Source: an uncultured Ruminococcus sp.
Lineage (GTDB): Bacteria > Bacillota > Clostridia > Oscillospirales > Ruminococcaceae
Reading direction: 5' to 3'
Length of the DNA: 64,000 bases
Assembly (NCBI GenBank): GCA_902787365.1
Contig: CADAGC010000013.1
Location: 2,893 to 66,892, forward strand
The notes beneath the pieces were generated by a model. It worked only from the letters and a program-made list of their open reading frames with translations, had not been told where the DNA came from and made no database searches. Each line of letters begins with the position of its first letter. The first letter of the stretch is position 1. This document shows positions 20,394 to 26,354 of this stretch, piece by piece. Both the position numbers and the translations under genes were made by a program.

Positions 20394-22634
20394 ATGGACG
20401 TTTCAGAAAAATATCCTCTTGCCTTGCCTAAAGGAACGGTGCTGGCAGGACAGTATGTTATAGACTCGGTGCTCGGTCAGGGCGGCTTTGGCATAACCTA
20501 CAAGGCTACCGACCACAAGACAGGCGAGAACGTTGCGGTCAAGGAGTATTTTCCCGATACACTTGCTTACAGAGATGCGACTGAGGTAATATCCTACCCA
20601 GGCGAGAGAAGCGAGAACTTTGACTACGGCAAGGAGGGCTTTTTGCAGGAGGCGCAGACTCTTGCACAGTTCATCGGCAACGAGAACATAGCCCGCATAC
20701 ACAGCTACTTTGAAGAAAACGGCACGGCTTACTTCGTTATGGAATATATCGAGGGCATAAGCTTTGACGAATACATAAAACGCAAGGGCGGCAAGATAAC
20801 CGTTGACGAGGCCGAGCGTGTGCTCATACCCATTATGGACGCACTTGATGCGGTACACGCAGCAGGCATAGTTCACCGTGACGTAACGCCCGATAACATC
20901 TATATCTGCCAGGACGGCAAGATAAAGCTGCTCGACTTCGGCGCCGCAAGATACAGCTTAGGCGACAAGAGCCGCAGCCTGGACGTAATACTAAAGCACG
21001 GCTTTGCTCCCAAGGAGCAGTATACAAGGCGTGGCAGGCAGGGGCCTTATACCGATATATACAGCATAGCGGCGACTTTCTACTTTGCAATAACCGGCAA
21101 AAGACCGCCCGATTCGGTCGACAGACTTGATGAGGACGACCTTATACCGCCCTCGTCGCTCGGCGTTGATATAACCGACTATCAGGAAAAGGCGCTGTTT
21201 ACAGCTCTTGAAGTGCAGCCGCAGAACCGCTTCCAGTCAATGGCGGTGTTCAAGAAGGTGCTGCTCAATGAGCGCATAGCGGCGGCAGCCCCCGTGAATA
21301 CTCCGCCCCCCGTGGCGCAGCAGCCGGATAATACACAGGCGATACCCCACACCGTGGCAGCTTCGCCCCACCCGTCGCCCGTGCCGCAGGTCGCTGCAAA
21401 CGGTATGCCCGCAGCGCAGGCTAAAAAGAGCGGCGGCAAGAAGATAGCCATAGGTGCTGCCTGCGTGGCGATAGCTGCAGCCATAGGTGCAGCGGTGCTT
21501 ATCCCGGGGCTTTCAAAGAGCGATGACGATGATGATGACAAGGACAGCTCGTCGAAGCATTCGGTAGTTGCGGTTGACAACAGCACATCTGATGATGACG
21601 GCGGTAATGGCGGCAAAGATGAGCCTGCCGTGACTACGGCCAAGAAGGTAGATGATGACCTGCTGACGGGGACTACTACCACGACGACTACTACAGCCAA
21701 GCAGCAAGACCCGCCCTCGTCGGGTGGGGGAGATACGTCGCTTGATGTGCTTGATATGAACAATGTACATCTCGGCGGCTCGGGAACGGTCGTCGGTAGC
21801 ACATTCTACTTCACCGACAACTGGGGAAATGATGTGACGGCTGCCACCACCACCGAAACAAAAAGTATTTTTACCGACCTTGACAAGCCGGTGTCAAACC
21901 TTATGAGATACGGCGATAAATACCTGTATTTTCTTTATGACAAAACGATATACTGCTACTTCCCCGACACGGGCAAGAATGAAGAGGCAACTCTTCTGTC
22001 GCAGTTCAAGAACAAGGTCGAAAAATTCTATATAACCGGAAGCTATTTCTTCATATACAGCGATAAGACCCTTTACCGTGTCGATTTCAGCGGAAATGTC
22101 GAAGAGAGCTATTCGGGTATCGAATACCCCGAAAACTTCATTCTCGTAGACGGGAACCTGTATATACTGGGCGTAGACACAAACGGCGACCCCGGTTTAT
22201 TCAAAATGCCTGCTGACAATTTCGCTGCAGGTGCCAAGGGAATATCAAACGCCAACTGCAGCTGGGATGCGATCGCATCTGACGGGAGCTATATCTATAT
22301 AGCCTCGACAGATATTTCCACAGGTCAGGTATTTATCGAGCAATGCGACCTCGCTATTTCGCAGGTCTATGCTTCGACAGAGGTCTCGTCTGTGGTGGAT
22401 TCTATCTCAATGCTTACCGTATATAATAACAATGTATTCTTTGGCTATTATAATGTAACCGACTCAAACTTCCCGGTATACAGCACAACTCTCAGCGGCA
22501 CGACCTTCAGCAAGCCGAGCAAGATCACAGATTATGCGCTTTCATACAATATAGCGGTATACTCGGGCGGCGGCTTCAGGTTCTCTTATTTCGGAGAAGA
22601 CGGAATATCACACTATCGTGAGTATGATAAATAA
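20394..22634 (+). CDS. Hanks-type Ser/Thr protein kinase with TM and extracellular beta-propeller-like (DUF5050-like) domain
   Basis: [38 protein letters not shown]. Pro-rich linker, TM [25 protein letters not shown]/S/T-rich spacer, then repeated YxYF-type blades. Confidence 0.9.
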   Translation: [746 protein letters not shown]

Positions 22635-22666
22635 TAAATAATAATATATATCAGGAGGAAAAACAA

Positions 22667-23371
22667 ATGGCATTACAGGAATGTGCAAACGGTCATCTTT
22701 ACGATACCGACCAGTACCCCACCTGCCCCTATTGCAGAGGAGGTACAAACGTTATCAACTTCGCAGCCCAGAGCAACGTGGGCAAGACGGTGGCTGCGGC
22801 TAACGCAGTTATACCCCCGCAGGGTGCAGCACCGCAGGGAATGGCGCCTCAGGGTATGCCGCCCCAGCAGGTCATGCCCCAGCAGATAACACCGCCTAAC
22901 GAGGTCGGCGCAACGGTAGCGCCCCAGTCATACATCAAACAGCAGCAGCAACAGCAGCAGAACGCTGCCGATGTAGGCAAGACGGTGGGCGTTTTCCAGA
23001 GGAAGATGAACTTTGAGCCTATCGTGGGCTGGCTGGTATGTGTGGGCGGCCACGAAAAGGGTAAGGATTTCCGCATATACGGCAAGAACAACACCATAGG
23101 CCGCAGCGAGAAAATGGACATCTGCATAAAGGGCGACCAGACTATATCGAGGGAAAACCATGCAAGGCTCGCATATGACGAGAAGCACAACGCTTTCCAC
23201 CTTATACCCGCAGACAGCACAAACACTATCTACCTCAACGACGAGCCTGTTTATGTTCCCACAAAGCTTAACGCAAGGGATATCATCGAGTTCGGTGAGT
23301 GCAAGCTTATGTTCGTGCCTCTGTGTGATGAGAACTTCACATGGAAGAGCGTTGACGAAGCCGGGAAGTAA
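22667..23371 (+). CDS. zinc-ribbon plus FHA domain protein
   Basis: CANGHLYDTDQYPTCPYC ribbon, a P/Q-rich linker with a Q run, and a C-terminal FHA (GRSEKMDICIKGDQTISRENHARLAYD...NTIYLNDEPV). Confidence 0.85.
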   Translation: MALQECANGHLYDTDQYPTCPYCRGGTNVINFAAQSNVGKTVAAANAVIPPQGAAPQGMAPQGMPPQQVMPQQITPPNEVGATVAPQSYIKQQQQQQQNAADVGKTVGVFQRKMNFEPIVGWLVCVGGHEKGKDFRIYGKNNTIGRSEKMDICIKGDQTISRENHARLAYDEKHNAFHLIPADSTNTIYLNDEPVYVPTKLNARDIIEFGECKLMFVPLCDENFTWKSVDEAGK

Positions 23372-25622: not shown

Positions 25623-25625
25623 AAA

Positions 25626-26354
25626 ATGACTTTTGATGTTTTTGAATATTCAAACAAGGGCGGCCGTGACTACAATGAGGACAGCATAGGCAGCCGATAT
25701 GATGAAAACGGCGGCATATTCGTGGTGGCTGACGGCCTCGGAGGGCACAGCTTAGGCGAGGTGGCCTCTGAATGTGTGGTAAGCACCCTTGTTGACGGCT
25801 TTGCAGGGCTTGGTGATGACCCTGTGGCGCAGATAAGGCTTTTGATAAAGGCCGCCAATGACAACGTGCTTGCTCTTCAGGCGCAGAGAAACACCGTGAT
25901 GAAAAGCACGGCGGCTGTGCTGGCGATAAGCGGCGGCAAGGCATTTATCGCAAACACGGGGGATTCGAGGGTGTATTATTTCCACGAGGGCAGGATAGCT
26001 GCCTACACCGAGGATCACTCTGTAGCCTACAAAAAATACAAATCGGGCGAGATAACCCGTGAAGAGATCTGCGATGACGATGATCAGTCACGGCTTCTGC
26101 GTTCGCTGGGCAGCCCCGATAGGTTTGAGCCTGATATTACGGCTATCCCGGGCAATATCTGTGCGGGAGATGCTTTCCTGCTGTGCTCTGACGGCGCATG
26201 GGAGTATGTGCGTGATGACGAGATGCTCATAGATATGTTCAAGGCGGCGGATTCACAGCAATGGGCAGAGCTTATGCTGCTGCGGCTTATGGAGCGCATT
26301 GACGGGCAGAACGACAACGTGTCGATAATGACCGTAAGGGTATTGCAGGAATAA
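25626..26354 (+). CDS. PP2C family Ser/Thr phosphatase (2)
   Basis: RDYNEDS, VADGLGGHSLGEVASE, LCSDGAWE, DNVSIM. Confidence 0.85.
   Translation: MTFDVFEYSNKGGRDYNEDSIGSRYDENGGIFVVADGLGGHSLGEVASECVVSTLVDGFAGLGDDPVAQIRLLIKAANDNVLALQAQRNTVMKSTAAVLAISGGKAFIANTGDSRVYYFHEGRIAAYTEDHSVAYKKYKSGEITREEICDDDDQSRLLRSLGSPDRFEPDITAIPGNICAGDAFLLCSDGAWEYVRDDEMLIDMFKAADSQQWAELMLLRLMERIDGQNDNVSIMTVRVLQE

Follow-up and report, generated by a model that had tools for sequence, protein, structure and literature searches.

What might an operon do that encodes one Hanks-type receptor kinase, two FHA-domain proteins and two PP2C phosphatases, and in which one FHA domain is joined through the membrane to a secreted protease? 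We analyzed such an operon at positions 20394–26354 (plus strand) of a 64,000-nucleotide (nt) stretch of DNA from an uncultured Ruminococcus sp. (GenBank assembly GCA_902787365.1, contig CADAGC010000013.1, positions 2,893–66,892); this whole stretch is called the window in the following. With moderate confidence, we propose that the five genes are a self-contained transmembrane phosphothreonine (pThr) signalling module, polymorphic and sometimes phase-variable, that controls a surface protease. Comparison of related contigs indicates that both extracytoplasmic domains of this module are exchanged as cassettes between strains on a near-identical cytoplasmic core.

Architecture and conservation of the five-gene operon

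Five co-directional open reading frames (ORFs) encode, in this order, a receptor kinase (STK), a protein with a zinc-binding pattern and an FHA domain (Zn-FHA), a first phosphatase (PP2C_A), a protease with a transmembrane (TM) helix and an FHA domain (protease-FHA) and a second phosphatase (PP2C_B):

20394–22634, plus strand: STK gene, 746 residues
22667–23371, plus strand: Zn-FHA gene, 234 residues
23374–24186, plus strand: PP2C_A gene, 270 residues
24207–25622, plus strand: protease-FHA gene, 471 residues from ATG 24207
25626–26354, plus strand: PP2C_B gene, 242 residues
26369–26396, plus strand: terminator-like hairpin with a 12-bp stem and a T run to 26406, closing the operon

An initial annotation of this DNA had described the five ORFs as one transcription unit with gaps of 32, 2, 20 and 3 nt. 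ORFs and gaps are present as described, the gaps being counted with the protease-FHA gene beginning at ATG 24207. The ORF list has GTG 24177 as its start, whereas AAGGA, a ribosome-binding site, precedes the ATG, and the protein read from this ATG starts with a signal peptide. Shine-Dalgarno-like sites are clear before four of the five genes (GGAGG, AGGAGG, AAGGA and GGAG); PP2C_A, which starts 2 nt past the preceding stop, has only a weak GGGAAG. Spacing, the terminator-like hairpin and synteny all uphold an operon-like organisation, and the five genes are hence probably transcribed as a single unit.

We scanned GTDB species representatives and obtained 58 loci with true relatives, numbered with the prefix L in the following, in which gene order was determined by tblastn. 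The full order STK, Zn-FHA, PP2C_A, protease-FHA, PP2C_B recurred in 33 of the 58, each from a different species, and the clustering of the five genes is therefore far beyond chance. Conserved gene neighbourhood, which the initial annotation had named as a check, is thus borne out. Carriers of the full order belong to Ruminococcus/Oscillospiraceae, Lawsonibacter, Lachnospiraceae, Butyrivibrio, Acetatifactor and Lachnoclostridium. In about ten further loci the module was cut by contig ends or the kinase lay elsewhere, about twelve loci contained solitary protease-FHA paralogues, and three had a rearranged version with Zn-ribbon kinases downstream. When 711 ORFs from the related loci were clustered, only the five module families were conserved and the flanks were not; the module is therefore self-contained.

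The rearranged version is found at L056:4838–15174, where TM-FHA, Zn-FHA, a TM-anchored PP2C, a PP2C and protease-FHA are followed by three kinases that start with a Zn ribbon, i.e., one with a C-terminal TM segment and no ectodomain, one with an ectodomain of about 700 residues and one that is soluble. L049 has a similar arrangement, L057 a partly similar one.

Profile searches on the five proteins upheld the domain calls of the initial annotation, with all named Pfam matches above their gathering scores. The kinase has the following parts:

20394–21278, plus strand: cytoplasmic Hanks kinase domain, residues 1–295 (Pfam Pkinase)
21279–21443, plus strand: juxtamembrane linker, residues 296–350, with Thr sites including H-T-V-A-A
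21444–21512, plus strand: TM segment, residues 351–373, a hydrophobic stretch read from the sequence
21744–22631, plus strand: extracellular β-propeller domain, residues 451–746 (AlphaFold2 and Foldseek)

Pkinase (PF00069) matched with 109.1 bits against a gathering score of 31.7, and the kinase residues K50, E86, H161-R162-D163, N168 and D181-F-G can all be read in the sequence, as in a Hanks-type kinase. Its activation loop contains Ser and no Thr. The sequence KKSGGKK precedes the TM segment and, by the positive-inside rule, places the C-terminal region outside the cell. An AlphaFold2 model of the C-terminal 296 residues, built from 40 sequences, was all-β with a pLDDT of 91.5 and a pTM of 0.89. 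Foldseek matched this model to propellers, i.e., the seven-bladed EUBREC_1955 of Eubacterium rectale (3s25), the ectodomain of the sensor BT4673, and BtuG. The ectodomain has no Pfam match even at E=10 and no sequence relative in the PDB, and it was placed by fold search only. A homology search with the ectodomain alone (query 21756–22631) came back empty; it is unreliable, since the identical protein P0121 was found with the full-length query. Some kinase homologues carry Pfam DUF5050, and besides propellers their ectodomains are of the LRR_5, MORN and RCC1 kinds. The initial annotation was therefore right in describing an extracellular β-propeller-like domain rather than PASTA repeats: AlphaFold2 and Foldseek agree on it, and no PASTA match was obtained.

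The protease-FHA protein has the reverse orientation, with its catalytic domain outside and its FHA domain in the cytoplasm:

24207–25622 (gene), plus strand: signal peptide, residues 1–32, followed by an HtrA-like S1 protease, residues 33–300 (Pfam Trypsin_2)
24498–24500, 24690–24692 and 24948–24950, plus strand: protease triad H98, D162 and S248, respectively
25155–25226, plus strand: TM helix, residues 317–340
25302–25619, plus strand: cytoplasmic FHA domain, residues 366–471 (Pfam FHA)

Trypsin_2 scored 85.4 bits and FHA 41.6 bits (gathering score 20.7), no PDZ domain was found with Pfam, and KKSGGK directly follows the TM helix. The triad is invariant in 16 diverse homologues, and Foldseek placed the AlphaFold2 model next to the protease domains of HtrA1 and DegS (TMt 0.68–0.80). 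Pfam, AlphaFold2 and Foldseek thus agree on the S1 protease-TM-FHA architecture that had been read from the sequence. Within the FHA domain, G390-R391, S408 and H411 are invariant. The fusion is widespread, with at least 983 homologues, and every one of the top 120 combines Trypsin_2 with FHA and bears a generic name only. A literature search of incomplete coverage returned no description of a protease-FHA fusion. The two FHA proteins had been called duplicated readers, which is misleading: BLASTP between the two FHA domains gave no alignment, i.e., they have no detectable similarity, and we dropped the idea that they are recent duplicates.

Both phosphatases retain the family's hallmarks, with PP2C (PF00481) at 42.3 bits in PP2C_A and 37.4 bits in PP2C_B (gathering score 20.3) and PP2C_2 (PF13672) at 61.2 bits in PP2C_B (gathering score 24). 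All four metal-binding motifs are present in PP2C_A (RQEDS, DGMGG, SDG and QDN), which has an N-terminal extension with V-T12-V-S-P and PppA (6jkv) as its best PDB match. PP2C_B has NEDS, DGLGG, SDG and NDN and matches tPphA and PstP in the PDB. Judged by these motifs, neither PP2C looks like a pseudo-enzyme.

Some loci extend the set. In 11 Lachnospiraceae loci PP2C_B is directly followed by a sixth gene, for a protein with a signal peptide, an extracellular VWA domain, a TM helix and a cytoplasmic FHA domain (L013, at 2903–4576, and L014, L016, L020, L022, L023, L044–L047 and L050). This VWA-TM-FHA protein shares the design of the protease, i.e., an ectodomain with an FHA handle. Other loci have tandem kinases with differing ectodomains.

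A repeated G-K-T-V motif in the Zn-FHA protein

Candidate threonines for the FHA domains to read lie in the linker of the Zn-FHA protein, which is organised as follows:

22682–22735, plus strand: Zn-knuckle, residues 6–23, a cysteine/histidine pattern
22775–22795, 22901–22921 and 22970–22990, plus strand: G-K/A-T-V motifs with T41, T83 and T106, respectively
23018–23320, plus strand: FHA domain, residues 118–218 (Pfam FHA)

Its FHA domain (PF00498) scored 49.4 bits against 20.7, and the pThr-binding residues G145-R146, S161-R162, H165 and N186 are invariant in 20 Zn-FHA sequences, as in a pThr-binding FHA domain; its nearest solved relatives are GarA/Rv1827. The pattern C6-x3-H10-x9-C20-x2-C23 is also invariant in the alignment. 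No Pfam model matches the putative Zn ribbon or knuckle, which we propose from this Cys/His pattern. At E≤1e-30 and with clustering at 50% identity, the family has 411 representatives, and the N-terminal knuckle is found in 129 of the best 150 of them.

Between knuckle and FHA domain, the disordered linker contains two to five copies of [DE]-[IVT]-G-[KAS]-T-V-[AG]-[PVA], with the motif logo D/E-I/V/T-G-K/A/S-T-V-A/G-P/V. T-V dipeptides occur 60 times in the 20 linkers against 11.7 expected, a count reached in 0 of 2000 shuffles, and the last copy, G104-K105-T106-V107 just before the FHA domain, is invariant. The N-terminal extension of PP2C_A is enriched as well (9 T-V versus 1.5 expected, reached in 0 of 2000 shuffles). 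In the 711 ORFs from the related loci, hardly any full motif falls outside the module proteins, which carry it in Zn-FHA proteins, kinase juxtamembrane regions and the linkers of VWA-TM-FHA proteins. No description of the motif was found in the literature search, which was of incomplete coverage.

The one outsider with the motif is a membrane protein of 598 residues at L026:12933–14729 (minus strand), 3.5 kb from a module. Its N-terminus forms a double zinc ribbon, its disordered region contains seven repeats of the K-T-V type, and it further has a TM helix and an ectodomain that is uncharacterised. It may possibly represent a further substrate class of these kinases.

FHA domains bind pThr, not pSer. 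Since the activation loop of the kinase is without Thr, the T-V motifs are the best docking-site candidates, and we regard them as candidate sites of both phospho-acceptance and FHA docking. With this motif in its linker, the Zn-FHA protein appears to be both reader and substrate, in the manner of a GarA/OdhI-like switch or a multivalent scaffold, and not merely a recruited effector. This modifies two proposals of the initial annotation. It had the FHA proteins recruited by kinase autophosphorylation; instead of the kinase juxtamembrane region, where T-V is only weakly enriched, it is the Zn-FHA linker with its invariant last motif copy that holds the strongest candidates for pThr sites. It had also called the Zn-FHA protein an effector, of which the zinc pattern and the FHA domain stand, while the protein's role appears to include that of a substrate.

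Exchange of the outward-facing domains between strains

How differently the parts of the module evolve became apparent from median identities over 190 locus pairs:

kinase domain: 70%
protease FHA: 58%
PP2Cs: 55–57%
Zn-FHA protein: 53%
protease ectodomain: 52%
kinase ectodomain: 20%
juxtamembrane linker: 10%

The catalytic domain has 70–90% identity in over 100 kinase homologues, the ectodomains of which are mostly 20–30% identical or of other kinds. The close pair L021/L027 shares 93% identity in the kinase domain and 81% in the protease FHA, compared with 37% in the kinase ectodomain and 56% in the protease ectodomain.

Within the species of the window the pattern is sharper. The same-species contig L074 has about 99% nt identity to the window over 13 kb save two islands:

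21735–22652, plus strand: island 1, the kinase-ectodomain cassette, with about 40% nt and 25% amino acid identity to L074
about 24180–25052, plus strand: island 2, signal peptide and S1 domain, with 74–88% nt identity to L074

Outside these islands, kinase residues 1–447 have only two nonsynonymous differences, Zn-FHA is 100%, PP2C_A 99.3% and the protease FHA 99% identical. Another contig, L079, matches the window with 98–100% in each 100-nt bin except for 24342–25041 (64–89%); the backbone being identical, L079 has a third allele of S1, which brings their number to at least three. The reverse combination is found in L081, which carries the window's ectodomain cassette at 97–100% nt identity on a diverged backbone (kinase domain 76–97%, juxtamembrane region 60–72%, Zn-FHA and PP2C_A 35–89% nt identity). 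In the junction alignment, the 5′ junctions of both cassettes (L074 and L081) fall at one GGGAGAT at the start of the propeller.

The S1 alleles have a synonymous divergence (dS) of 0.75–1.1 versus 0.03–0.06 in the rest of the gene, with ω of 0.11–0.17, and appear to be old and under purifying selection. The old synonymous divergence and the low ω therefore point to allelic replacement by recombination and not to recent positive selection. A diversity-generating retroelement as the source was rejected, as the alleles differ throughout at about 25% amino acid identity and have old synonymous divergence. With tblastn we found no silent ectodomain cassettes or paralogues in the window, and a shufflon-type mechanism inside the window is therefore unsupported. 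A metagenome scan for further same-species cassette alleles, with a 30-mer 5′ of the junction, gave 0 matches.

In relatives, expression of the module may also be switched. In six loci the gene next upstream of the module encodes a small serine recombinase (Pfam Resolvase) and is followed by inverted repeats of 19–26 nt (88–100% complementary) around a segment of 87–123 nt. The candidate switch regions are:

L021:2891–3745
L035:2926–3690
L042:3170–4075
L034:2792–3676
L037:2852–3736
L032:2131–2926

Promoter-like sites lie in the flanked segment: L034 has a 12/12 TTGACA-17-TATAAT that points away from the kinase, L042 has two sites of 10/12, and in L035 a site faces the kinase. Recombinase, inverted repeats and promoter segment are what these six loci share with gut-bacterial invertons, and they look like the anatomy of an invertible, phase-variable promoter; a scan for the L034 inverted repeats in the few contigs available recovered a single orientation. 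A homologous recombinase and repeat pair also precedes an unrelated operon in a metagenome contig (L083:233–1000).

The window itself is without such an arrangement. Its upstream region has no recombinase or inverted-repeat switch, just a short palindrome:

20338–20374, plus strand: likely promoter/operator, with a putative function read from consensus matches only

An extended −10 element, TGATATAAT (20355–20363), lies within this near-palindrome, the 16-nt arms of which (20338–20353 and 20359–20374) are separated by a 5-nt gap. Its position upstream of the kinase makes it a possible operator for some repressor. An Rfam scan of the 437-nt upstream region found no RNA element.

Known systems and candidate modes of action

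The initial annotation had held that the operon is not a named system, and neither NCBIfam and PADLOC nor the literature, the latter with incomplete coverage, gave us a family model or paper with a name for it. None of the five proteins reached the cutoff of an NCBIfam model. The nearest scores were 146 bits against 450 for PknB/Stk1 PASTA (NF033483), 105 and 144.5 against 230 for Stp1/IreP, 36 against 125 for FhaB/FipA, 26.7 against 200 for OdhI/GarA (NF041660), 68.5 against 416 for HtrA/Do (TIGR02037) and 18.2 against 120 for VI_FHA/TagH (TIGR03354). The module is thus not a member of the PknB/PASTA family, from which it also differs by having no PASTA domain, nor of the OdhI/GarA or HtrA/Do families. 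It was rightly set apart from the TerY-P triad, with no vWA gene in or next to the operon, and from sets associated with type VII secretion systems (T7SS). No T7SS ATPase was found in the large window ORFs scanned or in conserved flanking families; the large ORFs gave no FtsK_SpoIIIE match, and small WXG100-like ORFs were not searched exhaustively.

Its logic is nevertheless shared with several known systems. The threonine phosphorylation pathway of the type VI secretion system (T6SS), PpkA-PppA-Fha1 in Pseudomonas and Agrobacterium, likewise combines a membrane Hanks kinase with an extracytoplasmic sensor, a PP2C and FHA docking on pThr, the docking serving to assemble a membrane machine. PppA is the best solved relative of PP2C_A, and PpkA bears an extracellular VWA domain, as is added in some relatives of the module. 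Here, in contrast, the host is Gram-positive, no T6SS genes or secretion apparatus were seen, and there are two PP2Cs and an FHA-TM-extracellular protease. The actinobacterial fhaA-fhaB-pstP-rodA-pbpA-pknA-pknB cluster also has two FHA proteins, a PP2C and a receptor kinase in one operon, and in it FHA domains recognise pThr both at juxtamembrane sites and on substrates. It has two kinases and one phosphatase, whereas the module has one kinase, two phosphatases and a protease-TM-FHA protein and is without PASTA, rodA or pbpA.

Single components have parallels as well. GarA and OdhI are small FHA proteins with a phospho-acceptor Thr motif N-terminal to their own FHA domain; theirs is an ETTS site, whereas Zn-FHA has two to five G-K-T-V copies, an N-terminal Zn-knuckle and no evident link to an enzyme of the tricarboxylic acid cycle. 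FraH of Anabaena, involved in heterocyst membrane organisation, has an N-terminal double zinc ribbon, a Pro/Gln-rich linker and an FHA domain at the C-terminus, a likeness in architecture. HtrA and DegS share with the module's protease the S1C chymotrypsin fold, the invariant H-D-S triad, membrane anchoring and outward orientation; they have PDZ domains, whereas the regulatory part of the module protease would be a cytoplasmic FHA domain across the membrane. Compact sets of a Hanks kinase and a PP2C, often with FHA or vWA, are further known from the TerY-P triad, from kinase-PP2C-vWA sets in conflict systems (PMC7159879), from a vWA-STPK-FHA-PP2C operon of Deinococcus (bioRxiv 10.64898/2026.01.23.701218) and from the new T7SS variants T7SSc-j (bioRxiv 10.1101/2024.01.30.577966). 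The TerY-P, Deinococcus and T7SS sets are not described with a protease-TM-FHA protein or duplicated PP2Cs. The window is without a vWA gene, the VWA of 11 related loci is that of the extracellular VWA-TM-FHA protein, and no EssC-like ATPase or WXG100 gene is conserved beside the module in the 58 loci. By the features that define those families, the module is hence outside PknB/PASTA, TerY-P, the T6SS pathway, T7SS and GarA, with which it shares the logic of writing, reading and erasing pThr. Unusual are its FHA-tethered ectoprotease, the repeated G-K-T-V motif and the cassette exchange of both extracytoplasmic domains.

From domain architecture, topology, synteny, the retained catalytic and pThr-binding residues, the T-V motif and the ectodomain polymorphism, we infer the following mechanism. 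An extracellular cue would bind the polymorphic propeller and switch on the conserved cytoplasmic kinase domain. The kinase would then phosphorylate the Thr of [DE]-[IVT]-G-[KAS]-T-V-[AG] in the Zn-FHA linker and possibly sites in its own juxtamembrane region and the PP2C_A N-terminus. Two unrelated FHA domains, that of Zn-FHA and that of the protease tail, would dock on these pThr sites, and the multiply phosphorylated Zn-FHA protein might act as a GarA/OdhI-like switch, as a multivalent scaffold or as both. HtrA-family proteases act as oligomers. Clustering of protease tails on the scaffold might thus lead the HtrA-like domain outside to oligomerise and become active, i.e., inside-out control. 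Two active-looking PP2Cs would reset the state, PP2C_A maybe being recruited via its own T-V site, and the output would probably be remodelling or processing of the cell surface upon a strain-specific external cue. The optional VWA-TM-FHA proteins and tandem kinases obey the same logic and thereby support the model.

Four observations weigh against this inside-out model. T-V dipeptides are only weakly enriched in kinase juxtamembrane regions (22 versus 13.4 expected, reached in 19 of 2000 shuffles). T106 is only about 12 residues ahead of the FHA core, maybe too close for binding in cis. The protease FHA has Phe or Tyr for the canonical Asn (S430-S-F-G433-T434 versus S-x-N-G-T), and its pThr binding may be atypical. 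Finally, the identities of kinase and protease ectodomains co-vary once the cytoplasmic backbone is accounted for (partial r=0.66, 0 of 5000 permutations; controls 0.26 and −0.08), a correlation drawn from 16 loci that are not phylogenetically independent, and no more than suggestive. A direct extracellular interaction would account for this co-variation no less well than inside-out control, and the co-variation would favour some direct relationship between kinase and protease outside the cell.

Such a relationship might run from outside in. The protease would then act upstream of or on the kinase, cleaving or shedding the propeller or making its ligand, its FHA tail would merely hold it beside the phosphorylated kinase complex, and the two ectodomains would be a matched, co-evolving pair. 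This agrees with the correlation, with L074, which differs from the window in both ectodomains and in nothing else, and with close locus pairs, in which both ectodomains diverge together. The correlation could, however, be inflated by a faster rate of extracellular domains as well as by the non-independence of the loci; L002 and L004 are 68% identical in the kinase ectodomain but 92% in the protease domain, and L079 differs in its S1 allele with the linked kinase cassette not visible. We consider outside-in coupling unlikely on balance and at the same time the main rival, a role in defence or envelope homeostasis being less well supported. A bolder variant, to which we give distinctly little credence, makes propeller and tethered protease a co-evolving, allele-matched pair and thereby a strain-specific device to recognise a phage, a competitor, a host factor or kin at the surface. 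The pair would be wired to a fixed cytoplasmic pThr circuit, would gain new specificities via cassette swaps at a fixed junction and in some species be turned on or off by an invertible promoter, as a bacterial counterpart of polymorphic receptor kinases.

Diverse ectodomains (propeller, LRR_5, MORN, RCC1) on a very conserved kinase, old alleles exchanged by recombination, the putative invertible promoters with serine recombinases in six relatives and the tandem kinase arrays could also be expected of a surveillance or anti-phage system. Its ectodomain would sense a phage, a bacteriocin or a competitor, and the response would be proteolytic removal of surface receptors or growth arrest via Zn-FHA. 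PADLOC models for the PD-T4-6/mad6 kinases match the STK (E 3e-47 and 5.5e-43, both over the generic kinase domain; the models are without curated cutoffs, and the gene context differs, with a set of five genes and no mad genes), and PDC-M21C matches PP2C_B. These matches, however, amount to generic kinase, PP2C and trypsin similarity, in this species the surroundings of the module are housekeeping, stable and free of defence or mobile genes, and the module has no nuclease, NTPase or toxin effector. Moreover, polymorphism and phase variation are equally typical of nutrient- or host-facing proteins, and we hold a defence role to be improbable. Most improbable is an envelope or division homeostasis module, i.e., a PASTA-less analogue of PknB/PrkC-Stp and of actinobacterial FhaA-FhaB-PstP-PknA/B: the best NCBIfam similarities are to Stk1/PknB, Stp1/IreP and FhaB/FipA and the set of two FHA proteins, PP2C and kinase resembles the actinobacterial one, but none of the scores comes near its curated cutoff, a PASTA domain is absent, rodA, pbpA and division genes are neither close by nor conserved in the flanks, and swapped cassettes or phase variation are not expected of an essential system.

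The surroundings of the module in the window are housekeeping and cellulosomal, with MetRS, FeoB, MATE, TldD/PmbA, Dus, GH5, GH3 and a dockerin protein. Contigs identical to the window occur in rumen metagenomes. Elements in the window besides the operon are:

10233–10313, plus strand: NiCo (nickel/cobalt) riboswitch (Rfam, 44.2 versus 37 bits), just upstream of ORF 10335–11270
15209–17511, minus strand; 19213–19956, minus strand; 30840–33987, plus strand; 34870–38817, plus strand: sizeable ORFs without a Pfam match, among them a Lys/Ala/Glu-rich secreted protein of 247 residues divergent from the operon and an ORF of 1315 residues
26432–26460, plus strand: 12/12 sigma-70 promoter TTGACA-17-TATAAT, serving the next gene, trkA
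26493–26975 and 27074–27883: trkA, split into 160 and 269 residues
38872–41631, minus strand: ORF of 919 residues, collinear with the GH3 gene of the sister-strain contig L074
42693–45764, minus strand: BspA-type LRR_5 protein of 1023 residues, LRR_5 being also an alternative kinase ectodomain in homologues
46910–51292, plus strand: Listeria-Bacteroides-repeat protein of 1460 residues with a C-terminal dockerin
51415–52608, plus strand: GH5 cellulase

From its LRR_5, dockerin, GH5 and GH3 genes, this appears to be a cellulosome-type genome of a Ruminococcus-like rumen organism. The trkA gene is also split in an identical-strain contig (L075) and intact, with 452 residues, in the sister-strain contigs L074 and L079; it would hence be a strain-specific disruption or a split gene.

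Circuits of Hanks kinases, FHA domains and PP2Cs are well understood in few bacteria only, such as for PknB and the T6SS pathway, and the module described here is common in uncultured gut and rumen Clostridia. If our reading is true, an FHA domain would serve as the cytoplasmic handle of an extracellular enzyme and permit inside-out control across a Gram-positive membrane, and the short G-K-T-V motif, as phospho-acceptor and docking site, would be usable for genome-wide substrate prediction. Receptor-kinase ectodomains would evolve by fixed-junction cassette exchange, together with the protease domain. With Lachnospiraceae bacterium AB2028 (locus L046) there is a cultured carrier, the candidate sites are pinned down to single residues, and the natural alleles are ready-made specificity swaps.

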